From a virus, in the UHGV virus genome UHGV-0179089: 12,237 bases of DNA; one strand, 5' to 3'. Made by a program: the position numbers and the translations under genes. How positions within the stretch are numbered: the first letter of the stretch is position 1; each line of letters starts with the position of its first letter. The notes beneath the pieces are model-generated. The model was not told the origin of the DNA. It searched no databases and saw only the letters and a list, made by a program, of their open reading frames with translations. Below, piece by piece: positions 1-12,237 of the stretch.

Positions 1-801
1 GTCCGTCACGGTACACTCTGTAAAGTCGACCGCCGACAGCTTTGTCGCCGCCAGGTAAGCCCGGTCGATGGGCAGTGTGGCCGTCTCCGGCTCCGGACCG
101 AAGGCTTTTGTCAGCTCCGTGCGGAAGAAGCCGCCCAGCTGCTGCTTCATCAGGGCTTTTTTCTTCTTCTGCGCACGCTGGAATTTTGCCGAGTTTTTCT
201 CTGCAAGGTTGGCAAGTTTCATGGTGACCTGCGCCAGCGTCATATCACGTCCACTCATCGGCGCAACGGTGTGAGTAACGTCTTTTTTATTCAGTAAGAA
301 CTGGAAAGCAACCAGCGTATCGCTATTTGTGATCCGGTTTTCCGCCGTCGGGCTATGAAACAGAATGCTGATAGTCTGACCATCACTGAGCGGAATAATG
401 GCTGGCAGGACCGGCAGCCCGTTAACGTTACGCGCCCGGCCAATTTCAGCGCCGCCGATCGCTCGCGCGCCGCTCTGGGCCACATCACCCGTTTTATCAC
501 TCCCCGCAGAGATTCCTGTACCATTCAACTTCTGGTTCAATGCCCGGACAAATGCCTGCATGGTCCGGTGTAACTGCAAACGAGTAGAACTAATCGCCTC
601 CAGTAAATCCGTAGCACACCAGTGGATCGGCGTGTCATAGAAGAACGTAGCCTCGATTTCCTCCAGCGTGTTGGATTCCGTCATCAGATAGCGGTCCTCA
701 CCGGCCATTAATGCGCGATATTCATCATCAGTCACCGGCGGGGGAAGCACGTCAAGCCCAGGCTTAATCGTCACCCCTTTATTGATATTGAACTGTTCCA
801 T
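1..801 (-). CDS. Hypothetical phage protein, N-terminal 267 aa (start ATG at 801..799; C-terminus beyond left edge). Paralog of the adjacent 203-aa protein; tentatively DarA/Hdf-like (P1 antirestriction/capsid-associated family)
   Basis: Minus-strand frame checked triplet by triplet from 801 to 1 and contains no stop. Shares the motif KNSAKFQ(R/K)..K.K with the next gene. Start lies 1 nt after the stop of the upstream gene (operon-like). DarA/Hdf assignment rests on recalled P1 operon layout, not on sequence identity. Confidence 0.55.
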   Translation of the reverse strand, partial: MEQFNINKGVTIKPGLDVLPPPVTDDEYRALMAGEDRYLMTESNTLEEIEATFFYDTPIHWCATDLLEAISSTRLQLHRTMQAFVRALNQKLNGTGISAGSDKTGDVAQSGARAIGGAEIGRARNVNGLPVLPAIIPLSDGQTISILFHSPTAENRITNSDTLVAFQFLLNKKDVTHTVAPMSGRDMTLAQVTMKLANLAEKNSAKFQRAQKKKKALMKQQLGGFFRTELTKAFGPEPETATLPIDRAYLAATKLSAVDFTECTVTD

Positions 802-802
802 G

Positions 803-1414
803 TTAATTTCCTGCTTTCAGTTGCTTAAGACGGCGTTTGAGTTCGCCATTTCGGGCCTTTTCGTTATTGAGTCGGCCTGTCTCCTTATCCAGCTTCGCCC
901 GCAAATCAGTGATCTGCTGTTGATTGAAAGACACCGAGTTCTGCGCTGATTTATAAGCGGCAACCACCTGAGCATTCCGCTGTTTTGCCTCTTGCAGGCG
1001 CTGAAAGTTGGATTTTACTGCCGGTTTCTTGTCTACCGGATTGGCAACACGTTTCGCTTTGGCGATCAGTGATTTCTGGAATTTTGCGGAGTTTTTGCGG
1101 GCCGCTTGCCCCATGACGGTACCAAGCGTCTTGATATCCGGCGACTGAGCGTTAGGAATAGCTTTTCCATTCAGCCTCACAGACGATATATCGCCAGTAT
1201 CGTTTACCTGTATGGCAAGAATTTGTCCGTCGTTAAGAACCAGCTTTGCGGTTTTAACTTTAACGCCATCTTTCGTTGTTGCGCGGTTGCTGGAGTCAAC
1301 CTCAATTACCGTAACACCGGTTTTATTGATCGCCGCGATAAGGGATTTCAGCCCCTTTTCATTAACCTGGTCAAAATCGACCGTTGCATACTTATTTTTC
1401 GTCATCTGACACAT
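803..1414 (-). CDS. Hypothetical phage protein, 203 aa (probable true start at the ATG 1405..1403, giving 200 aa); tentatively Hdf-like (homolog of DarA fragment)
   Basis: ORF track. An AGGA Shine-Dalgarno sits about 8 nt upstream of the internal ATG at 1405. Lys/Ala/Gln-rich C-terminal half; shares a motif with the partial downstream ORF. Its 5' end overlaps the stop of the 147-aa ORF. Confidence 0.6.
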   Translation of the reverse strand: MCQMTKNKYATVDFDQVNEKGLKSLIAAINKTGVTVIEVDSSNRATTKDGVKVKTAKLVLNDGQILAIQVNDTGDISSVRLNGKAIPNAQSPDIKTLGTVMGQAARKNSAKFQKSLIAKAKRVANPVDKKPAVKSNFQRLQEAKQRNAQVVAAYKSAQNSVSFNQQQITDLRAKLDKETGRLNNEKARNGELKRRLKQLKAGN

Positions 1415-1835
1415 CCTGTGCGAGATTTATTACGTAACTTCTGCGGATTTGCTGAGTAACAGGGAAAATCCGATACAACGGGTTAATGAACGAGTCGCCA
1501 TGCGTAACCATGACGTTGAAATGCCACAGCCGTTCTCCTTTACCCATATATTCAGTGGGTATGTATAACCATTCGCTGTTTTCGCCCTGTTCAGCCGATG
1601 TCAGACAACGTTGCTCGCCTTCAATCACTGTCGTCGGCTTCTGAACATCGCGGATCCAATACCTGACCGTTGCGCCGCGCAAAAAAGGAAATTTGGACCG
1701 GTATTTGAACGGCACCCGGATGAAGCCCGGTTTAATTTCCACTTCGCCAAGCTCTAAATTCGTGATGTCCTTGCGTTTTAGCAAATAGCGATCGGCTAAG
1801 GCTAACGCAAGAGCGCATACACCCCAGCCAATCAT
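1392..1835 (-). CDS. Hypothetical protein, 147 aa, with a hydrophobic N-terminus; possible lysis regulator (size and position resemble P1 LydB, tentative)
   Basis: ORF track. N-terminal hydrophobic stretch MIGWGVCALALALA. Its start overlaps the stop of the 109-aa holin-like gene (ATGA at 1832-1835), suggesting translational coupling. Confidence 0.5.
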   Translation of the reverse strand: MIGWGVCALALALADRYLLKRKDITNLELGEVEIKPGFIRVPFKYRSKFPFLRGATVRYWIRDVQKPTTVIEGEQRCLTSAEQGENSEWLYIPTEYMGKGERLWHFNVMVTHGDSFINPLYRIFPVTQQIRRSYVINLAQDVSDDEK

Positions 1836-2161
1836 TTCCCGCCTCCCTTTTTCACCAAACTTGTAAGAACATTCAGAATGCTATCGATATTCACTCGTTT
1901 CATCCCTGAAATCACCTCATGACCGTTATTGCTGGCTATCGTTACCATTAAGTACGTAATTGATAACTCCCAGCCCTCGTGTTGCCCCAATAGGTACGCC
2001 ACCGCGCCAGCTGTCACTGCAACAAAGATCTCCGTAACCAATCCCAACAAATTGCCAGACTGACGACCGTCTCGGACATCCATCAGGAACGTGCCTATCC
2101 CACCAATTACTGAAAGCAGGAGCGCAATAGCAACTGGAGCTAATTCCTGTGTGTCAAGCAC
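1832..2161 (-). CDS. Small membrane protein, holin-like, 109 aa (GTG start); tentatively LydA-type holin
   Basis: Strong AGGAGGG Shine-Dalgarno 5 nt upstream of the GTG at 2161. Two or three predicted hydrophobic helices and a charged C-terminus (KKGGGK). Paralogous to the 98-aa ORF upstream. Confidence 0.6.
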   Translation of the reverse strand: MLDTQELAPVAIALLLSVIGGIGTFLMDVRDGRQSGNLLGLVTEIFVAVTAGAVAYLLGQHEGWELSITYLMVTIASNNGHEVISGMKRVNIDSILNVLTSLVKKGGGK

Positions 2162-2166
2162 AAGTT

Positions 2167-2188
2167 CCCTCCTACGTTGTCAGGAGGT
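2167..2188 (-). promoter_or_regulatory. Stem-loop that pairs the Shine-Dalgarno of the 109-aa holin-like gene with an upstream anti-SD (mRNA CCUCCU ... AGGAGG)
   Basis: Plus-strand CCTCCT (2168-2173) and AGGAGG (2182-2187) are a perfect 6-bp inverted repeat with an 8-nt loop. On the minus-strand mRNA the downstream arm is the ribosome-binding site. Confidence 0.4.
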
Positions 2189-2228
2189 AATGGTATGCAA
2201 AGTAACTTCTCAACCGGTCATTTGTTGC

Positions 2229-2525
2229 TTAAGAGGCATTTCTATTGAGGTACGAATCGATAAGCCTTTGTAACCTTTCAAGAATGAGCCTGTTATTGAT
2301 GCTGCAAATAAGAGTCACGCAATTCTGAAGACTTTCATCCATCCCCTTATATTCCGCGAAACACATGCCTATAAAGCCTGCAAGTACGGCAGAAATACAC
2401 TCGGCCAACAATTTCCTGCATGACGCTTCGTAACGTTTTTCACGAACCCCATTCAGAAACGAATGCACTCCGCCAAGGATGGATATGAGAATTATTTTTA
2501 AATCAAACATAATAATTTCCCTCAT
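2229..2525 (-). CDS. Small membrane protein, holin-like paralog, 98 aa (probable start at ATG 2510..2508, giving 93 aa)
   Basis: ORF track. GAGG Shine-Dalgarno 9 nt upstream of the internal ATG. Alignable to the 109-aa protein (S-x-[IL]-GG-x-x-x-FL ... AV-x-AG ... VT-[IL]-I-x-S-x-NN). Confidence 0.55.
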   Translation of the reverse strand: MREIIMFDLKIILISILGGVHSFLNGVREKRYEASCRKLLAECISAVLAGFIGMCFAEYKGMDESLQNCVTLICSINNRLILERLQRLIDSYLNRNAS

Positions 2526-2637
2526 GGTGAGTTAAACATCACTGGGAAACGGTATGCACTTTGTGATTTCCACACACACTGGTTTTTGTTAATTAAAATC
2601 CGCAGCTTGCTATAAATAACGATAGTGAGCAGAAAAT
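2526..2637. promoter_or_regulatory. Divergent intergenic region between the holin-like operon (minus) and the invertase (plus); candidate invertase promoter (-35 TTGTTA 2587-2592, -10 TATAAA 2611-2616)
   Basis: 112-bp AT-rich spacer between divergently oriented genes. Hexamers are 18 bp apart and about 20 nt upstream of the invertase ATG. Confidence 0.3.
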
Positions 2638-3198
2638 ATGCTAATAGGCTATGTACGCGTATCAACAAATGAACAAAACACTGCTTTGCAACGAAATGCC
2701 CTTGAAAGCGCAGGATGTGAGCTAATTTTTGAGGATAAGGCGAGCGGCAAAAAGGCTGAACGCCCTGGGTTAAAAAAGGTTCTGCGTATGCTTTCCAGAG
2801 GTGACACCCTGGTCGTATGGAAGTTAGATCGTCTTGGGCGCAGCATGCGTCACTTAGTTGTGCTGGTGGAAGAGCTGCGTGACAGAGGCATTAACTTCCG
2901 GAGTCTCACTGACTCCATCGACACCAGTACACCAATGGGGCGCTTTTTCTTTCACGTAATGGGGGCGCTGGCAGAAATGGAACGCGAACTTATCGTCGAA
3001 CGTACACGCGCTGGGCTTGATGCAGCTCGCGCGGAGGGGCGAATAGGAGGCCGTCGGCCTAAATACCCGGAAGAGACATGGCAGCAAATGCGACGATTGC
3101 TAGAAAATGGCATCCCCCGTAAACAGGTTGCAATCATCTATGATGTGGCTATGTCCACGCTTTATAAAAAGTTTCCGGCATCATCATTTCAATCTTAA
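2638..3198 (+). CDS. Serine-type DNA invertase, Hin/Gin/Cin/Pin family, 186 aa
   Basis: N-terminal catalytic signature [14 protein letters not shown]. Family-conserved blocks [63 protein letters not shown]-terminal helix-turn-helix [21 protein letters not shown]. Confidence 0.95.
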
Positions 3199-3215
3199 AC
3201 CTTGGTTTAAGAGAA
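3190..3215. other. cix/gix/hix-type 26-bp crossover site for the invertase (CAATCTTAAACC-TT-GGTTTAAGAGAA)
   Basis: Two 12-bp half-sites in inverted orientation around a 2-bp core; the inner 9 bp of each are a perfect dyad (TCTTAAACC / GGTTTAAGA). Overlaps the invertase stop codon (3196-3198) and lies just upstream of the start-less tail-fibre cassette. Confidence 0.75.
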
Positions 3216-3245
3216 CTCGGCACCAGCGGCGAAAAGATCCCCCTG

Positions 3246-5351
3246 TTGAGCACGGCTAACACATGGAGTGCACGCCAGACTTTCAACGGTGGGATCACCG
3301 GTGCGCTGACAGGGAACGCCGATACCGCAACGAAATTAAAAACAGCGCGGAAGATTAACAACGTTTCATTTGACGGTTCGGCGGACATAACGCTGACTCC
3401 TGCGAACCTTGACGTTACCAGCCTGACGTTTATGAAGCACAATGGAATAATCCCAACCACTGACAATCTTGAATCCTATGGTCCAGAAGAAAAATATCTT
3501 GGGACGTGGTCATGCCCGTCACAATCCACTGCAAAACCAGAGTCTGGTTACCCTGAAGATAAAGGAAATGGGGTTCTGGAAGTATTCAATGCTGGTCGCT
3601 TTCACTGCACACAACGCTACACCACCCGAACCGGTAATATTTACATTCGGATGCTTGATGCAGAATGGAACCCAGCCAGTCCAACATGGAGTGCATGGAG
3701 AGTTATTACAAGCGGGACTCGACCATTAAGCACGTCAATTGACCTGAATTCTTTAGGTGGTGCGGAACACCTGGGAATATGGCGCAATAGCAGTACATCA
3801 ATAGCCTCATTTGACCGTCATTTCCCGGAGGAAGGGAGTTTTGGGCAGGGTATTCTGGAAGTCTTTGAAGGCGGTCTGTATGGGAGGATGCAACGTTACA
3901 CCACCCGTAGTGGGACTATGTACATTCGCGGACTGACTGCCTCATGGGATGCAGAAAATCCACAATGGGAGGACTGGATTGCTGTTGGGTATCAGTCCAC
4001 GGGATGGACTTATTCAGGGGATCTTGATGACCTTTTAAAGCCTGGTATTTATAGCGTTACGAAACAGGCCACAAATGCACCTGTCACCGACTCTAAAGAT
4101 CTTGCTGTTGGCTCAATAGTTGAAGTGAAAAAACGTTGTGATATTGAATCGTATATCCAGACATACACGACTGTTTCAGCAACGGATGCCTATAAAAACC
4201 GGACATTTCAGCGAACCCGCGCCAGCGGTGAAACTGACTGGGGGGAATGGGCGGAAGTATACAACTCAAAATCATTACTCACTAAATTAGGTGTCGGCGG
4301 TGTTACCGACAGGTTATCCAGTCTGGACTGGCAGACCTACGACTTTATACCGGGCAGCATGATAACTGTCAGGCTTTCAGATATGACCAATATTCCCGAT
4401 GGGATGGAATGGGGCGTCATTGATACTAACCTGATAAATATCACTGTTGGCCCCAGTGAAGGCGGAGGTGGCGCCCGTTCAATGCATGTATGGCGCAGCA
4501 CTTCAAACAAAACCAACTATCGTTTTTTTACAGTCCGCTTATATGGCAATCCTGGGGAGCGTAGCTTCAATATTCGTCGGCTACCAATTATCGACGAAGC
4601 CCAGACATGGGAGGCAAAACAGACATTCAGTGCAGGCCTTTCTGGTGAACTGTCCGGCAATGCGGCTACAGCAACAAAGCTGAAAACGGCAAGGACAATT
4701 AACGGCGTAAAATTTGACGGCTCGGCAAATATTGAAGCATTTCCGCCAGGTGTTCCGTTGCCGTGGCCATCAGATACACCACCTGCGGGCTATGCAATTA
4801 TGCAGGGGCAGACGTTTGATAAGGCAGCATATCCGAAACTGGCTATAGCCTATCCTTCTGGTGTTATTCCTGATATGCGCGGCTGGACAATCAAGGGCAA
4901 ACCCGCCAGTGGGCGTGCTGTATTGTCACAGGAACAGGACGGGATTAAATCGCATACTCACAGTGCCAGTGCGTCAAATACGGATTTGGGAACGAAAACA
5001 ACCAGTTCGTTTGATTACGGCACGAAGACGGTCAGTACGTTTAATCATGGCACAAAATCAACGAACAATACGGGCAATCATACGCACACTGTCGGTGGTG
5101 TTTATGGCGGCGACTCTGTCGGTGGAAAACAGCGTGTACAGGCTTCAGGAAACAATCAGGTGTCCAGCACCGCCGGAGCGCACGCCCATACGGTGGATAT
5201 TGGTCAGCATAACCACACTGTAGGTATTGGTGCCCATGCACACACTGTGGCCCTGGGTGCGCACGGACACACCATCACGGTAAATGCTACGGGTAATACC
5301 GAAAACACCGTCAAAAACATCGCATTTAACTATATTGTGAGGCTTGCATAA
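3246..5351 (+). CDS. Tail-fibre variable C-terminal cassette (Sv/H-like receptor-binding region) with no start codon of its own; frame is open from 3168, through the crossover site
   Basis: No ATG or GTG between the upstream stop (3165-3167) and the conserved motif; the track start is a TTG. Conserved tail-fibre junction motif [13 protein letters not shown]...FDGSADI. Tail-collar-like block [21 protein letters not shown]. Five C-terminal HxH repeats. Confidence 0.85.
5076..5273 (+). repeat. Five tandem His-x-His repeats (NHTHTV, AHAHTV, QHNHTV, AHAHTV, AHGHTI) in the tail-fibre tip
   Basis: Read directly from the translation of 3246..5351. Resembles the metal-coordinating HxH motifs of T4-type fibre tips (established knowledge). 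Confidence 0.6.
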
Positions 5352-5929
5352 TGGCTTTCAGAATGAGTGCAGAAGCACAAACTATCCGCGTTTTCAATTT
5401 ACTTGATGGAACCAATGAATTTATTGGTGAAAGTGACGCATATATTCCGCCGCATACAGGTCTGCCTGCAAACAGTACAGATATTGCACCGCCTGATATT
5501 CCTGCTGGTTATGCAGCCGTTTTCAATGCAGATGAAATGAAATGGGAACTGATGGAAGACCATCGCGGAAAGACCGTCTATGAAACGAAAACGGGAGCAG
5601 CCATTTATATTTCTGAACTTGGCGTATTACCTCCAGACGTGACAGCCATTTCCCCGGATGGGGATTATCAGAAATGGAACGGCAATGCGTGGGTGAATGA
5701 TGAGAATGCAGAGCGTGATGCGCTTGTCAGAGCGGCTGACTCTCAGAAGAAAGAGCTGATTGCATATGCAGGTGAAATTATTGCCACGCTGCAGGATGCT
5801 GTCGATTTAGATATGGCTACCGAGGAAGAAAAGTTAAGCCTGACACACTGGAAAAAATACCGTGTGCTACTGAATCGCGTTCAGCCGGAAAATGCCCCGG
5901 ATATTGAATGGCCGAAAATGCCGCAATAA
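5351..5929 (+). CDS. Tail-fibre assembly chaperone (Tfa / Mu U / P2 G family), 192 aa
   Basis: Start overlaps the tail-fibre stop (ATAATG). N-terminal motif [44 protein letters not shown] and C-terminal [11 protein letters not shown]...IEWPKMPQ are typical of this family. Confidence 0.9.
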
Positions 5930-6496
5930 ATCGTATTAGAACTGGTGTGAGATTAGTCATCTATGGCACAGAGTAAAACCTAATCTGACAGTCCACTCTG
6001 TGCCAGCAGCAATTGCGTGGCCAAAGGAAACACTGCCAGCACAATCAGGTATTGATATGTCGATGTAGTCCTGAATGGCTGGCAACTCACCTAACCTAAT
6101 GAGCTCCCGTTCAACCGGAACATAAGGTCAATTCTGTTGTATGATTTTTCCCTTTTTGAAAGAATAATAGCGATAAATGACGAATTTTTGGAACCCTGCT
6201 TGTTGCTGAAGATACGTTGTCACAATGGAAGAACGTGACTTACATCGAAGTGATGGGAGTATCCGTCAAGATCTAATACACGAAAATAGAAGTGAAAAGG
6301 TACGCTGCGAGGGCGCTCGCCTGTCCGCTCTGTCTGCGAAGAAATAATTTATTTTAGGCCACCCAAGCGGCTTGTTTAAGATTAGTACTCTTATCTAGAA
6401 AACTCGTAACTGACTTGAATGTATGGTAACATGATAATAACAAGGTTCGAACATCCGCCAATGCAATATACTTAGAACATATAAATTGAATCTGAC

Positions 6497-7378
6497 ATGG
6501 ATAAAAATAAATTGGTTAAATTTTCACTAGTCGAAAACGCCTTGGATTCTATTGAGCTAGGTTTGGAGTATTTTTACGAAGCAAAAAAAGAATTCACGCC
6601 ACGTAAATATAAACAATGCCTAATTAATATGTTTCATGGCTCGGAGTTAATCCTGAAAGAAATATTGAGTAGGATAAATATTATACTCATATTCGACAAA
6701 AACTCTTTATTTAAAATTTGCAAAGATCCTTTAAGTCCTACTGGGGATGAGTTGTATAAATTAAAATCAATAGATATTAATAGCTTATGCGATGAGGTTG
6801 TGAAGCATTATCCGGACGAGTTTAAAGGAAAGCTTAATATTGTCAAGGGCCTAGCTAGAGAAAGAAACAAGATACAGCATTTTGCAATCGAAATATCACC
6901 AGAGATATTATCAAGGTTACTCTCAAGTCTTTACATTGATGTTTTTAAGCCATCCTTTAAAATAATTTTATCTGAGCTTGATTATGTTAATCAATACAAT
7001 TCGCTGATTGAAAGGCAGATTATAGGTGCTGAAAAGACATTTCTTAAAATACAAGGTGATACTGATAACTATTTAGCTCTTTGTCCAAAGTGCGAGAACC
7101 ATTCTCACTTTATATTGTACAAAGGTACGGGTTACCCTGTTGAGACCTATTGTATTTGCTGTGATTATAAAAATACAGATATTGACATATCAGATTATCT
7201 GGTATGTCCTGAATGCGGATTCCCGTCATTGATATTTGATGAAAAAAATAATGCAGGAGTCTGCCTCAACGAGAAGTGTTACTATGGAATACAAGGTGGA
7301 TTCGTAGAAATGGAACCATGTGAAAATTGTGATGGCTTTATTATTGAAGGTTCATGCCCAGAATGTGATACGGATTGA
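6497..7378 (+). CDS. AT-rich cargo gene, hypothetical 293-aa protein: helical N-terminal region with an R-x4-H (HEPN-like) motif plus a C-terminal triple CxxC zinc-ribbon tail; candidate defence or abortive-infection effector
   Basis: Single long ORF in an island much more AT-rich than its flanks. Motif RERNKIQH at aa 121-128. Cys pairs CPKC, CICC, CPEC, CLNEKC, CENC, CPEC between aa 196 and 291. Occupies the slot between tfa and FI where P2 carries Z/fun. Confidence 0.75.
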   Translation: MDKNKLVKFSLVENALDSIELGLEYFYEAKKEFTPRKYKQCLINMFHGSELILKEILSRINIILIFDKNSLFKICKDPLSPTGDELYKLKSIDINSLCDEVVKHYPDEFKGKLNIVKGLARERNKIQHFAIEISPEILSRLLSSLYIDVFKPSFKIILSELDYVNQYNSLIERQIIGAEKTFLKIQGDTDNYLALCPKCENHSHFILYKGTGYPVETYCICCDYKNTDIDISDYLVCPECGFPSLIFDEKNNAGVCLNEKCYYGIQGGFVEMEPCENCDGFIIEGSCPECDTD

Positions 7379-7555
7379 GATTACTCGACGATTGGTGCAA
7401 CTGCATGCTTGCAAAACTCTATGGTGCTAACGGAGTCAATTACTGAATTGTTGTTACCCATTGACGGATAGATTTCGGTTGCTTAACTGTGAATGGAGTA
7501 GCATGACAGAGTTTTTTACCAGTCCGATTAGCTTCTATCAAATAGCAGTTCGGAC

Positions 7556-7584
7556 AGGCGGGCTGATTGCCCGCCTTTTCTTTA
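7556..7584 (+). terminator. Rho-independent terminator downstream of the cargo gene
   Basis: 8-bp GC-rich stem AGGCGGGC/GCCCGCCT with a 5-nt loop, followed directly by TTTTCTTT. Confidence 0.7.
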
Positions 7585-7601
7585 TCTGTTGTTTCATCCC
7601 C

Positions 7602-7616
7602 TGACCAGCCAGGTCA
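7602..7616 (+). promoter_or_regulatory. 15-bp palindrome TGACCAGCCAGGTCA upstream of FI; candidate late-promoter activator site (P2 Ogr-type)
   Basis: Perfect dyad centred about 70 nt upstream of the FI ATG, where P2-type late promoters carry an activator dyad. It does not match the TGT-N12-ACA consensus exactly. Confidence 0.3.
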
Positions 7617-7679
7617 AATAGCGTCTCATGCTCTGCACAACAGAAAATAGTTGCACCCATTAACCACGGAGTTAAACGG

Positions 7680-8870
7680 ATGAGTGACTATCATCACGGC
7701 GTGCAGGTGCTGGAGATTAACGACGGCACCCGCGTCATTTCCACCGTATCAACCGCCATTGTCGGCATGGTCTGCACAGCCAGCGATGCGGATGCGGAAA
7801 CCTTCCCCGTCAATAAACCGGTGCTGATTACCAATGTGCAGAGCGCGATTGCAAAGGCCGGTAAAAAAGGCACGCTGGCGGCGTCGTTACAGGCCATCGC
7901 TGACCAGTCAAAACCGGTCACCGTTGTCGTACGTGTGGAAGACGGCACCGGCGAAGACGAAGAAACGAAACTCGCGCAGACCGTTTCCAATATCATCGGC
8001 ACCACCGACGAAAACGGTCAGTACACCGGACTGAAAGCCCTGCTGGCGGCGGAGTCGGTAACCGGTGTTAAACCGCGTATTCTCGGTGTGCCGGGGCTGG
8101 ATACCAAAGAGGTGGCTGTTGCACTGGCATCCGTCTGTCAGAAGCTGCGCGCTTTCGGGTATATCAGCGCATGGGGCTGTAAAACCATTTCCGAGGTGAA
8201 AGCCTACCGTCAGAATTTCAGCCAGCGTGAGCTGATGGTCATCTGGCCGGATTTCCTCGCATGGGATACGGTCACCAGTACCACCGCCACCGCGTATGCC
8301 ACCGCCCGTGCGCTGGGTCTGCGTGCCAGAATCGACCAAGAGCAGGGCTGGCATAAAACGCTGTCCAACGTCGGGGTAAACGGTGTTACCGGCATCAGTG
8401 CGTCCGTATTCTGGGATTTGCAGGAGTCCAGCACCGATGCTGACCTGCTGAACGAGTCAGGTGTCACAACGCTGATTCGCCGTGACGGTTTCCGCTTCTG
8501 GGGTAACCGTACCTGCTCTGATGACCCGCTGTTCCTCTTTGAAAACTACACCCGCACCGCGCAGGTGCTGGCCGACACGATGGCTGAGGCGCACATGTGG
8601 GCGGTGGACAAGCCCATCACCGCAACGCTGATTCGCGACATCGTTGACGGCATCAATGCCAAATTCCGTGAACTGAAAAGCAACGGTTATATCGTGGATG
8701 GCACATGCTGGTTCAGTGAAGAAGCCAATGATGCGGAAACCCTCAAGGCCGGAAAACTGTATATCGACTACGACTATACCCCGGTGCCTCCTCTCGAAAA
8801 CCTGACCCTGCGCCAGCGTATTACTTCAAGATACCTGGCAAGTCTGGTCACCTCGGTTAACAGCAATTAA
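7680..8870 (+). CDS. FI: Contractile tail sheath protein (P2 gpFI-like), 396 aa
   Basis: Length and sequence (MSDYHHGVQVLEINDGTRVISTV...) match P2 FI closely from memory; GGAG Shine-Dalgarno upstream; followed by FII. Confidence 0.95.
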   Translation: MSDYHHGVQVLEINDGTRVISTVSTAIVGMVCTASDADAETFPVNKPVLITNVQSAIAKAGKKGTLAASLQAIADQSKPVTVVVRVEDGTGEDEETKLAQTVSNIIGTTDENGQYTGLKALLAAESVTGVKPRILGVPGLDTKEVAVALASVCQKLRAFGYISAWGCKTISEVKAYRQNFSQRELMVIWPDFLAWDTVTSTTATAYATARALGLRARIDQEQGWHKTLSNVGVNGVTGISASVFWDLQESSTDADLLNESGVTTLIRRDGFRFWGNRTCSDDPLFLFENYTRTAQVLADTMAEAHMWAVDKPITATLIRDIVDGINAKFRELKSNGYIVDGTCWFSEEANDAETLKAGKLYIDYDYTPVPPLENLTLRQRITSRYLASLVTSVNSN

Positions 8871-8882
8871 GGAGCCTGACCG

Positions 8883-9401
8883 ATGGCAATGCCGCGCAAA
8901 CTCAAGTTAATGAACGTCTTTCTGAACGGCTACAGCTATCAGGGCGTCGCGAAGTCCGTCACGCTGCCAAAACTGACCCGTAAGCTCGAAAACTATCGCG
9001 GTGCGGGGATGAACGGCAGCGCACCGGTAGACCTCGGCCTTGATGATGATGCGCTGTCAATGGAGTGGTCGCTCGGGGGCTTCCCGGATTCGGTTATCTG
9101 GGAACTTTACGCCGCAACTGGTGTGGATGCCGTGCCGATTCGTTTTGCAGGCTCTTACCAGCGTGACGATACCGGCGAAACGGTGGCCGTCGAAGTGGTC
9201 ATGCGTGGGCGTCAGAAAGAAGTCGATACCGGCGAGGGGAAACAGGGAGAGGATACCGAATCGAAACTCCCGGTGATTTGTACTTATTTCCGGCTGACGA
9301 TGGACGGTAAGGAGCTGGTCGAAATTGACACCATCAACATGATTGAGAAGGTGAACGGCGTCGACCGGCTGGAGCAACACCGCCGAAATATCGGCCTGTG
9401 A
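8883..9401 (+). CDS. FII: Tail tube protein (P2 gpFII-like), 172 aa
   Basis: MAMPRKLKLMNVFLNGYSYQG... and a 172-aa length; GGAG Shine-Dalgarno 8 nt upstream; conserved P2 order FI-FII-E-T. Confidence 0.95.
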   Translation: MAMPRKLKLMNVFLNGYSYQGVAKSVTLPKLTRKLENYRGAGMNGSAPVDLGLDDDALSMEWSLGGFPDSVIWELYAATGVDAVPIRFAGSYQRDDTGETVAVEVVMRGRQKEVDTGEGKQGEDTESKLPVICTYFRLTMDGKELVEIDTINMIEKVNGVDRLEQHRRNIGL

Positions 9402-9408
9402 TTTTCAT

Positions 9409-9429
9409 CCGGTCAGCCAGGCTGACCGG
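9409..9429 (+). other. Perfect 10-bp inverted repeat CCGGTCAGCC-A-GGCTGACCGG between FII and E; possible attenuator hairpin or protein-binding site
   Basis: Seen directly. No T-run follows, so it is not a canonical intrinsic terminator. Confidence 0.3.
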
Positions 9430-9457
9430 TTAACCCCGATTCAGAAGTGAGAAAACC

Positions 9458-9733
9458 ATGAACAAAGAAAATGTGATTACCCTGGACAATCCGGTCAAGC
9501 GTGGTGAGCAGGTTATCGAACAGGTCACGCTGATGAAACCCAATGCGGGGACGCTGCGCGGTGTCAGTCTGGCTGCGGTCGCAAACTCCGAAGTCGATGC
9601 ACTGATTAAAGTGCTGCCGCGCATGACGGCACCGATGCTGACTGAGCAGGAGGTCGCCGCGCTGGAGCTGCCTGACCTTGTGGCGCTGGCCGGTAAGGTG
9701 GTCGGTTTTTTGTCGCCGAACTCGGTGCAGTAA
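9458..9733 (+). CDS. E: Tail assembly chaperone gpE (P2-like), 91 aa
   Basis: 91-aa ORF directly upstream of the tape-measure gene; carries the slippery heptamer near its 3' end. Confidence 0.9.
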   Translation: MNKENVITLDNPVKRGEQVIEQVTLMKPNAGTLRGVSLAAVANSEVDALIKVLPRMTAPMLTEQEVAALELPDLVALAGKVVGFLSPNSVQ

Positions 9734-9885
9734 CGTTTCCGAAAAATCTCTCGGTCGATGACCTGATGGCGGATGTGGCAGTGGTATTTCACTGGCCGCC
9801 ATCAGAACTGTATCCCATGAGCCTGACCGAACTCATCACATGGCGCGAAAAGGCGCTCCGGCGAAGCGGAAACACGAATGAGTAA
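9458..9885 (+). CDS. E': gpE+E' fusion chaperone made by a programmed -1 frameshift at TTTTTTG (9706-9712); the -1 frame stays open to the TAA at 9883-9885, overlapping the T start
   Basis: Slippery heptamer T_TTT_TTG lies in the E zero frame. The -1 frame was translated by hand from 9709 to 9885 and has no stop; it ends ...WREKALRRSGNTNE*. Confidence 0.8.
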
Positions 9886-12237
9886 CAATGTAAAATTACA
9901 GGTATTGCTCAGGGCTGTTGACCAGGCATCCCGCCCGTTTAAATCCATCCGCACAGCGAGTAAGTCGCTGTCGGGGGATATCCGGGAAACACAAAAATCA
10001 CTGCGCGAGCTGAACGGTCACGCATCCCGTATTGAGGGATTTCGCAAGACCAGTGCACAGCTCGCCGTGACTGGTCATGCACTTGAAAAGGCTCGGCAGG
10101 AAGCCGAAGCCCTTGCCACACAGTTTAAAAACACCGAACGTCCGACCCGTGCTCAGGCGAAAGTGCTGGAATCCGCAAAGCGTGCGGCGGAGGACTTACA
10201 GGCGAAATATAACCGCCTGACGGATTCCGTTAAACGCCAGCAGCGGGAACTGGCCGCTGTGGGAATTAATACCCGCAATCTTGCACATGATGAGCAGGGA
10301 CTGAAAAACCGTATCAGTGAAACCACCGCACAACTTAACCGGCAGCGTGACGCGCTGGCGCGTGTCAGTGCGCAACAGGCAAAACTTAACGCAGTAAAAC
10401 AGCGTTATCAGGCCGGCAAGGAACTGGCCGGAAATATGGCCTCAGTGGGCGCTGCCGGTGTGGGGATTGCGGCGGCGGGAACGATGGCCGGAGTTAAGCT
10501 GCTGATGCCCGGTTATGAGTTTGCGCAGAAAAACTCAGAATTACAGGCCGTGCTCGGAGTGGCAAAAGACTCCGCCGAAATGGCCGCGCTCCGCAAACAG
10601 GCGCGCCAGCTCGGCGACAACACCGCCGCCTCGGCGGATGATGCAGCCGGTGCGCAGATTATCATTGCGAAAGCCGGTGGGGATGTTGATGCCATTCAGG
10701 CGGCAACGCCGGTCACGCTGAATATGGCGCTGGCGAACCGCCGCACGATGGAAGAAAACGCCGCCCTGTTGATGGGGATGAAATCCGCCTTTCAGCTTTC
10801 AAACGATAAGGTCGCTCATATCGGGGATGTTCTCTCCATGACGATGAACAAAACCGCCGCCGATTTTGACGGCATGAGCGATGCGCTGACCTATGCCGCA
10901 CCTGTGGCAAAAAATGCCGGTGTCAGCATTGAAGAAACCGCCGCAATGGTCGGGGCGCTGCATGATGCAAAAATTACCGGTTCAATGGCGGGGACGGGAA
11001 GCCGTGCCGTGTTAAGCCGCCTGCAGGCACCGACGGGAAAAGCATGGGATGCACTGAAAGAGCTTGGTGTGAAAACCTCAGACAGTAAGGGAAACACCCG
11101 GCCAGTATTTACCATTCTGAAAGAAATGCAGGCCAGCTTTGAGAAAAACCGGCTCGGTACTGCCCAGCAGGCTGAATACATGAAAACCATTTTCGGGGAG
11201 GAGGCCAGCTCAGCCGCCGCCGTGCTGATGACTGCCGCCTCAACCGGAAAGCTGGACAAACTGACCGCTGCGTTTAAAGCCTCAGACGGAAAGACCGCAG
11301 AGCTGGTAAATATCATGCAGGACAACCTCGGCGGTGACTTTAAGGAGTTTCAGTCCGCTTATGAGGCTGTGGGGACTGACCTGTTTGACCAGCAGGAAGG
11401 CGCACTGCGTAAGCTCACGCAGACGGCCACAAAGTATGTGTTAAAACTCGACGGCTGGATACAGAAAAACAAATCACTGGCGTCAACCATCGGCATCATT
11501 GTCGGTGGTGCACTGGCGCTGACTGGTGTCATCGGTGCCATTGGCCTCGTAGCCTGGCCGGTTATCACCGGCATCAATGCCATTATCGCGGCAGCAGGCG
11601 CAATGGGGGCAATTTTCACGACGGTTGGCAGTGCCGTTATGACGGCCATCGGGGCGATTAGCTGGCCGGTAGTGGCCGTGGTGGCCGCCATTGTCGCCGG
11701 AGCGTTACTTATCCGTAAATACTGGGAGCCTGTCAGCGCATTCTTTGGCGGTGTGGTGGAAGGGCTGAAAGCGGCATTTGCGCCGGTGGGGGAACTGTTC
11801 ACGCCACTTAAGCCGGTGTTTGACTGGCTGGGTGAAAAGTTACAGGCTGCGTGGCAGTGGTTTAAAAACCTGATTGCCCCGGTCAAAGCCACCCAGGACA
11901 CCCTGAACCGTTGCCGTGACACGGGCGTCATGTTCGGGCAGGCACTGGCTGACGCGCTGATGCTGCCGCTTAATGCGTTCAACAAATTACGCAGCGGCAT
12001 TGACTGGGTACTGGAAAAGCTCGGGTTCATCAACAAAGAGTCAGACACACTTGACCAGACAGCCGCCAGAACTCATGCCGCCACGTATGGCACCGGTGGT
12101 TATATTCCGGCGACCAGCTCTTATGCAGGTTATCAGGCTTATCAGCCGGTTACGGCACCGGCTGGCCGCTCTTATGTGGACCAGAGTAAAAACGAATATC
12201 ACATCAGCCTGACGGGTGGTACTGCGCCGGGGACACA
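9878..12237 (+). CDS. T: Tail tape measure protein (P2 gpT-like), N-terminal about 786 aa; 3' end beyond the right edge
   Basis: ATG at 9878, frame open to the window end. Coiled-coil-like N-terminus and a Gly/Ala-rich hydrophobic block (GIIVGGALALTGVIGAIGLVAWPVITGINAIIAAAGAMGA) typical of tape measure proteins. Confidence 0.9.
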   Translation, partial: MSNNVKLQVLLRAVDQASRPFKSIRTASKSLSGDIRETQKSLRELNGHASRIEGFRKTSAQLAVTGHALEKARQEAEALATQFKNTERPTRAQAKVLESAKRAAEDLQAKYNRLTDSVKRQQRELAAVGINTRNLAHDEQGLKNRISETTAQLNRQRDALARVSAQQAKLNAVKQRYQAGKELAGNMASVGAAGVGIAAAGTMAGVKLLMPGYEFAQKNSELQAVLGVAKDSAEMAALRKQARQLGDNTAASADDAAGAQIIIAKAGGDVDAIQAATPVTLNMALANRRTMEENAALLMGMKSAFQLSNDKVAHIGDVLSMTMNKTAADFDGMSDALTYAAPVAKNAGVSIEETAAMVGALHDAKITGSMAGTGSRAVLSRLQAPTGKAWDALKELGVKTSDSKGNTRPVFTILKEMQASFEKNRLGTAQQAEYMKTIFGEEASSAAAVLMTAASTGKLDKLTAAFKASDGKTAELVNIMQDNLGGDFKEFQSAYEAVGTDLFDQQEGALRKLTQTATKYVLKLDGWIQKNKSLASTIGIIVGGALALTGVIGAIGLVAWPVITGINAIIAAAGAMGAIFTTVGSAVMTAIGAISWPVVAVVAAIVAGALLIRKYWEPVSAFFGGVVEGLKAAFAPVGELFTPLKPVFDWLGEKLQAAWQWFKNLIAPVKATQDTLNRCRDTGVMFGQALADALMLPLNAFNKLRSGIDWVLEKLGFINKESDTLDQTAARTHAATYGTGGYIPATSSYAGYQAYQPVTAPAGRSYVDQSKNEYHISLTGGTAPGT

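Follow-up and report, generated by a model that had tools for sequence, protein, structure and literature searches.

The 701-aa open reading frame (ORF) at positions 3246-5351 (+) of the window appears to be a composite of two different elements. The window is the whole stretch of DNA analysed, 12,237 nt in length, and it corresponds to the entire contig NODE_839_length_12237_cov_2.18 of the ENA metagenome assembly ERZ1310408, with a coverage of about 2x. The sequence is P1-like plasmid DNA over positions 151-3760 and P2-like prophage DNA over positions 3567-12237, and the 194 bp where the two overlap are identical in both parents. It is probable that a head-less cassette from a P1-like Cin-invertible locus was fused to part of a P2-like H gene by a mis-join during assembly, and that the motif found twice in the frame is a generic linker.

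Translation recovers the frame as given in the preliminary description, and the repeats reported there hold up. The cores of the two motif copies share 30 of 43 residues and 66% of their nucleotides, in agreement with the claim that the motif is kept at the protein level and diverged at the DNA level. Because self-BLAST of the whole product returned the diagonal only, the 81-aa neighbourhoods of the copies were compared directly. BLASTP gave 54% identity over 61 aa (E=5e-24), far beyond chance. The limits of copy 2 lie one codon inside the positions originally proposed (4599-4736) at each end. The internal repeats at aa 109-154 and 202-247 are likewise real, with 22 of 46 residues identical, and the wider segments that contain them (aa 55-160 and 161-256) are 42% identical over 85 aa (E=2e-21, BLASTP). 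A third, diverged unit was recognised only by eye (G.[IL]VEV...Q.YTT...W.EW.EVY) and in the secondary structure of an AF2 model; BLASTP gave no match between it and the first two. The distal collar and HxH tip of the earlier account are also present, with consistent support from Pfam, from the structure 2XGF and from the translation (Table 1).

Table 1. Features of the window, with nucleotide positions, residues of the 701-aa frame where they apply, strand, and the basis of each assignment
Feature	Position (nt)	Residues (aa)	Strand	Basis
darA, truncated by the contig end	left end of window			Pfam, P1 order
DarA_N/hdf-like gene	803-1414		-	Pfam
lydB	1392-1835		-	Pfam
Two LydA-type holin genes (lydA, lydC-like)	between lydB and cin			Pfam, P1 gene order
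cin-type serine DNA invertase gene, 186 aa	2638-3198		+	Pfam Resolvase 4.3e-51, HTH_7 1.5e-16; position as cin in annotated P1
cix-type crossover site, 26 bp, CAATCTTAAACC TT GGTTTAAGAGAA	3190-3215		overlaps cin stop codon	Read in the sequence; P1 cixL has the same position relative to cin
Junction peptide, 21 aa	3198-3260		+	Fibre frame open directly from cix
Linker motif copy 1 (P1 S-type, TWSARQ...FDGSADI)	3261-3389	6-48	+	Translation, BLASTP, motif HMM
Knob-like domain 1 (approximate boundaries)	3408-3725	55-160	+	Internal repeat E=2e-21; AF2 pLDDT 70-86
Stretch of 194 bp identical in P1-like S gene and P2-like H gene; holds the P1-to-P2 switch	3567-3760			Per-base comparison
Knob-like domain 2 (approximate boundaries)	3726-4013	161-256	+	Internal repeat BLASTP, AF2
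Knob-like domain 3, diverged (approximate boundaries)	4014-4280	257-345	+	AF2 secondary structure and pLDDT
Fourth domain, common to P2 H	4281-4595	346-450	+	P2 DNA match from 4245; AF2 pLDDT <50
Linker motif copy 2 (module-terminal type, TW[GAE]..., QTWEAKQ...FDGSANI)	4602-4733 (43-aa core 4605-4733)	453-496	+	Translation, BLASTP
Collar, HxH needle and head tip, T4 gp37 type	4734-5351		+	2XGF E=1.5e-76; Pfam Collar 5.7e-10; six HxH triplets
Tail-fibre assembly chaperone, P2 G / P1 U family	5351-5929		+	Pfam Caudo_TAP 2.6e-40

The left arm of the window is colinear with the P1 series darA-hdf-lydB-lydA-lydC-cin-cixL-Sv'. Over positions 151-3343 it is also colinear with the P1-like plasmid contig L018, at 99.8% identity. 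The invertase gene matches that of L018 at the same level in DNA, and the two Cin proteins are identical. The crossover site downstream of it is built of two imperfect 12-bp inverted half-sites around a 2-bp core; the variable fibre part begins in frame with it, and motif copy 1 follows 46 nt downstream. The 14-nt core of the site, TAAACCNNGGTTTA, has a single exact match in the window, at 3196-3209. No second cix was found in the 12.2 kb, where the sole further match to the core carries two mismatches and is at chance level.

Several features indicate that the frame does not encode a complete fibre. The frame is open from the cix site, the junction peptide is identical to the one that follows Sc in full-length P1-like S proteins, and the position is that of Sv', so no gene with a start codon of its own underlies the '701-aa protein'. 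The ORF listing produced a spurious TTG start at 3246; the depositors' gene caller began at the ATG at 3432. A Pfam search of the product found no N-terminal attachment domain and no PF12571. Judged from the sequence, what it represents is a cassette that lacks its head and occupies the silent Sv' site beside cin. The P1 record describes Sv' itself as the C-terminal moiety of an alternative tail fibre that is expressed only after inversion of the C segment.

The surroundings of the cassette are incomplete as well. A full invertible segment is represented in the window by the invertase and one in-frame crossover site, while the second cix, Sc and the opposed cassette are missing. The ORF list holds no Sc-like frame, leaving no constant 5' part for a fusion, and the chaperone gene is followed not by an opposed variable fibre and chaperone set but by a cargo gene and P2 FI, FII, E and T, all on the + strand. 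Both the second inverted crossover site and Sc are present in the parent-like plasmid L018. Measured against a full P2 H locus, the distal part and its neighbours are colinear and the N-terminal domain is missing. Together, the missing parts of the invertible segment and of H are the appearance expected of a junction between two elements.

The block between the two motif copies is a known exchangeable unit consisting of three predicted pyocin-knob-like domains and a fourth domain. At least four kinds of proximal part precede it. The block stands without copy 1 behind the P2 N-terminus in the 873-aa H of P2-like prophages and the 913-aa H of phage L-413C, and behind Sc and copy 1 in P1-like S proteins. 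It also occurs in T-even gp37 (P0044) and behind another N-terminus (P0011). In a search for homologues, identity was 58-66% for most E. coli matches and 50% for a T-even gp37, and NCBI names them 'pyocin knob domain-containing protein'. Neither Pfam nor NCBIfam gave a direct model match to the block, and the fibre likewise matched nothing in NCBIfam.

An AF2 monomer model covering nt 3198-4760 was confident (pLDDT 70-86) only for model residues 80-355, where it predicts three similar beta-rich units; the linker motifs and the fourth domain had pLDDT values below 50. When the model was searched with Foldseek, it matched the R1 pyocin fibre 6CL5 (E=1.8e-5, probability 1.00, sequence identity 16%) and also staphylococcal phage receptor-binding proteins. 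The TM-scores of 0.17-0.23 for the pyocin fibre are low because several domains were compared at once.

These results bear on the original interpretation, in which the 701-aa product was a complete fibre with two binding domains, its duplicated motif marking an extra receptor-binding module placed above the collar and HxH tip. One part of it stands, in that about 400 aa between the copies do behave as a separable module in several fibre contexts. The block is autonomous and exchangeable, and its predicted globular, knob-like domains are of a kind known in R-type pyocin fibres. The complete fibre does not stand. The ORF has no N-terminal attachment domain, whereas the natural P2-like H carries PF12571; it begins at the cix site adjoining cin; and the flanking motif also occurs in systems that are not invertible. 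In T4, moreover, the receptor contacts of gp37 are assigned to the tip. A complete fibre with two stacked binding modules is thus a highly improbable account of this frame.

The distribution of the motif is much broader than that of invertible segments. By tblastn, copy 1 matches 588 phage records, among them P1-like, P2-like, T4-like and rV5-like coliphages and phages of Pseudomonas, Acinetobacter, Shewanella and Synechococcus. Among the PHROG fibre families, many match both copies, and no Pfam model, Phage_fiber_2 included, covers the 43-aa motif. An HMM built on copies 1 and 2 was used to count the motif in individual proteins, and it found one to seven copies. There is one copy in P2-like H and in the H of L-413C, and two to seven in P1-like S and Sv'. 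Two copies occur in S and Sv' of pESBL-blaCTXM-55, in the 1222-aa S of L018, in the partial S of the metagenome contig SKEH01000593 and in an ENA P1-like Sv'; three occur in the Sv' of another plasmid, four in the Sv' of L018 and seven in the 1405-aa S of plasmid p98192. The S protein of L018 is a genuine example of the arrangement Sc, motif 1, knob block and motif 2. Almost every homologue long enough to include it has a motif of the copy 2 type at the end of its knob block, and at least four different, unrelated distal ends follow this motif.

Because the motif occurs in 588 records across many genera, and because copy 2 precedes at least four unrelated distal ends, the motif reads as a general inter-block linker of phage fibres rather than a marker of invertible segments. 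The proposal that it marks the boundary at which invertible modules are exchanged is not upheld: the true crossover is the cix site, and the motif is carried by non-invertible fibres of T4-like, Pseudomonas, Acinetobacter and cyanobacterial phages. It is a generic linker flanking exchangeable blocks, and two copies are therefore usual in P1-like fibres with a knob block.

The right arm is P2-like throughout and comprises distal H, G, FI, FII, E and T, with an AT-rich, PDC-S64-like cargo gene at 6497-7378 between G and FI. Over 3409-12237 the window is 98-99% identical to P2-like prophages, and 98.75% identical to P2-like prophage contigs. A protein identical to the window's G adjoins an 873-aa H in complete P2-like prophages, where H has 873 or 874 aa, the P2 N-terminal domain PF12571 and a single motif copy. 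The identical G was also found in seven other contigs. Four of the seven reach upstream past the gene neighbouring G, and all four have a full-length H of 873/874 aa preceded by V-W-J-I or J-I; cin flanks none of the seven. P2 itself matches the window in DNA only from nt 4245, so its H gene has no detectable DNA similarity in the three-knob region and has the fourth domain in common.

The change from one parent to the other was located by per-base comparison. Window positions 3199-3760 have no mismatch to the variable part of the expressed S gene of L018, in which the C segment is flipped; mismatches begin at 3761 and are dense after 3881. Against the P2-like contig L010 there are nine mismatches in 3412-3566 and the next is not reached until 4471. 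The P1-specific alleles stand at 3412, 3437, 3449, 3452, 3473, 3482, 3503, 3515 and 3566, and P2-specific ones at 3761, 3815, 3852, 3881 and further on. Since the mismatches to L010 end at 3566 and those to L018 begin at 3761, the parent change is placed within the shared 194 bp. By this comparison, copies 1 and 2 of the motif come from two different elements joined within that stretch. A breakpoint at 3401-3409, suggested by BLAST coordinates, was rejected by per-base comparison with the closer parents and is only an old homology boundary.

The setting of the junction points to the assembly. In the sister sample ERZ1311710 both parent types are present as separate contigs at equal coverage: the P1-like plasmid L018 (93.5 kb, cov 6.06) and the P2-like prophage contig L014 (25 kb, cov 6.13), which has an identical G protein. 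The P2-like contig of that sample terminates at window position 3684, that is, 3761-77, as would fit a branch of a k=77 assembly graph where the shared repeat ends. Given the identical 194 bp, the coverage of about 2x and the breaking of the sister contigs at the repeat, the composite ORF is most likely a mis-join. A point against a mis-join is that the P2-like part of the window departs by about 1.2% from the P2-like contigs recovered, which means that the exact parents of the source sample are not among them.

The join could instead be real. Homologous recombination within the 194 bp would then have fused a P1-like plasmid with a flipped C segment to a resident P2-like prophage, or have placed P2 tail genes on the plasmid, and the ORF would be a genuine silent cassette whose P2-type tip Cin inversion could make available to the P1 S gene. 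Recombination over 194 bp of identity is biologically feasible, since the two elements are perfectly identical there and 96-98% identical over 3409-3971, and they occur together at equal coverage in the sister sample. Sequence comparison also points clearly to earlier exchanges between P1-like Sv' and P2-like H within the knob block (P0003, L008). Moreover, the contig is listed for three samples, and independent assemblies would favour a real join.

Against this stand the low coverage of the window and the sister contig, whose end falls precisely at the repeat. The join is absent from the complete E. coli genomes and PLSDB plasmids searched, and scans of genome contigs and viral contigs for the exact junction gave no match. 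In a metagenome scan, the exact P1-type boundary sequence between motif and knob was found only in a P1-like S gene and not next to P2 genes. A rare cointegrate should not, in addition, dominate a metagenome assembly. Finally, window 1-150 diverges abruptly from all P1-like darA genes, and no source for it was found in plasmids, E. coli genomes or phages, which hints at a patchy assembly. On balance, a real fusion of plasmid and prophage is unlikely. A stronger version, in which a true P1/P2 fibre exchange in one E. coli placed the HxH tip and its chaperone under Cin control and the knob block served as a second receptor-binding unit of a bivalent fibre, is more improbable still. Recombination by Cin at a secondary site was rejected as the origin of the join because the join lies 350-550 nt from cix and a core search of the window found no cix-like site at copy 2.

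With the mis-join as the preferred reading, the two halves of the contig can be assigned separate roles. The order cin, cix, in-frame junction peptide and motif copy 1 would represent the promoter-less variable cassette of a P1-family Cin-invertible locus. As modelled on the P1 and P2 systems, Cin would recombine two inverted cix sites in the P1-like phage-plasmid, so that the late S promoter would drive expression of either variable cassette, each with its own chaperone, as an in-frame fusion with Sc. The one beside cin would be silent and translated only once Cin flips the segment. From a point within the shared stretch the contig would run on as P2-like H, with knobs, fourth domain, copy 2 and gp37-type tip, and then from G to T. 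The mature fibre would probably be a trimer with its N-terminus on the baseplate, a middle part of globular knobs parted by short conserved linkers, and a gp37-type tip that touches the receptor, its folding assisted by the chaperone. The conserved linkers and near-identical blocks may offer a foothold for homologous recombination, so that blocks could have been swapped among P1-like, P2-like, T-even and other phages.

The case is an example of the modular and mosaic construction for which enterobacterial phage tail fibres are well known, and of the C-segment switch of P1, and it carries two practical lessons. An ORF that begins at the crossover site of an invertase is a cassette and not a gene. 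In addition, when phages living together share near-identical fibre modules, a metagenome assembly of low coverage can be misled into hybrid fibres that look plausible. If the join were true, it would show a phage-plasmid and an integrated prophage caught in the act of exchanging modules, and it would have moderate value for studies of host-range evolution and for fibre or pyocin engineering.

Mosaic fibres of this kind are already known, and every element found here belongs to a described type. The C segment of P1 is one such system (PMC6906374). Like P1 (cin - cixL - Sv' - U' - U - Sv - cixR - Sc) and the Min system of p15B, the window has the same gene order in its left arm and a cix site over the cin stop codon; its variable part is open from cix and has the same junction peptide and motif. 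It differs from the P1 segment in having one cix, no Sc and no opposed U/Sv, and in the P2-like FI, FII, E and T that come after the chaperone. With gene H of P2-like prophages (Peduovirus P24A7b, E. coli FDAARGOS_1337) the window has in common the knob block, copy 2, the collar and HxH tip, and G; over 3409-6002 its DNA is 98% identical to that of the FDAARGOS_1337 prophage. The H of Yersinia phage L-413C (913 aa), described as a four-part mosaic by Garcia 2008 according to PMC7460101, has the knob block and motif copy 2 in common with the window, which also shares G with this phage, with 97% DNA identity over 3409-4687, but its distal end is P1-S-like and lacks the collar and HxH tip. Both H proteins possess the P2 N-terminal domain and one motif copy, while the window ORF has the P1 cix junction and copy 1 instead. 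Exchange of fibre segments bounded by motifs is the theme of Sandmeier 1994, as cited and summarised in PMC8986868. Beyond the temperate phages, the last 219 aa of the ORF align with the T4 gp37 tip (2XGF) through the collar, the HxH repeats and the C-terminus. In contrast, the proximal architecture differs from that of gp37, and the chaperone here is of the G/U (Caudo_TAP) type. The predicted tandem globular units may resemble the knobs of the R-type pyocin fibre (6CL5), whose distal end differs in being a foot domain.

In some P1-like tail fibres, the linker, the 43-aa motif that lies between fibre blocks, occurs in short tandem arrays with a spacing of about 40 aa. The P1-type fibre S of plasmid p98192 and the silent variable fibre part Sv' beside cin on a 93.5-kb P1-like plasmid contig are two such cases (see the table). 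These arrays suggest that the linker also serves as a shaft repeat of adjustable length.

Coordinates of the fibre, cargo and lysis features
Feature	Location	Strand	Remarks
LydA-type holin, 98 aa	window 2229-2525	-	
LydA-type holin paralogue, 109 aa	window 1832-2161	-	
Cargo ORF, 293 aa	window 6497-7378 (flanks 5930-7680)	+	AT-rich, 31-38% GC
S, 1405 aa	p98192 (L007) 3768-7985		seven linker copies
Sv', 404 aa	contig L018 8609-9823		four linker copies
Serine O-acetyltransferase (annotation)	pESBL-blaCTXM-55 (L002) 11334-11906		within invertible C segment

On the P1-like plasmid pESBL-blaCTXM-55, the gene annotated as a serine O-acetyltransferase is flanked by two opposed chaperone genes and is cargo within the switch. 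In the window, the slot between the chaperone gene G and the tail gene FI, where P2-like phages usually hold cargo, is occupied by the 293-aa ORF, and several P2-like prophage contigs carry the same gene. Its product has a Cys-rich, zinc-ribbon-like C-terminus and matches PDC-S64, which PADLOC lists as a candidate defence family (E=2.6e-22). Additionally, it matches phrog_20819, labelled as of unknown function. A Pfam search returned no match.

In the P1-like arm, the antiholin gene lydB comes after both LydA-type holin genes. The same order is found in P1 as lydC, lydA and lydB, and the two paralogues with lydB are an ordinary P1-like arrangement.

At the left end, similarity to P1-like darA stops abruptly at a T/C-rich run, CAGGGCTTTTTTCTTCTTCTG, and the leftmost 150 nt differ. 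Beyond this break the darA frame stays open on the minus strand for 50 more codons (1-150). Searches of the phage collection, PLSDB plasmids and complete E. coli genomes found no match to these codons. Either darA has a novel C-terminus here, or this contig of about 2x coverage contains a second mis-join. The window is the entire metagenome contig NODE_839_length_12237_cov_2.18 of ENA ERZ1310408. In the sister sample ERZ1311710, each element has a contig of its own, one for the P1-like plasmid and another for the P2-like prophage, both at about 6x coverage.
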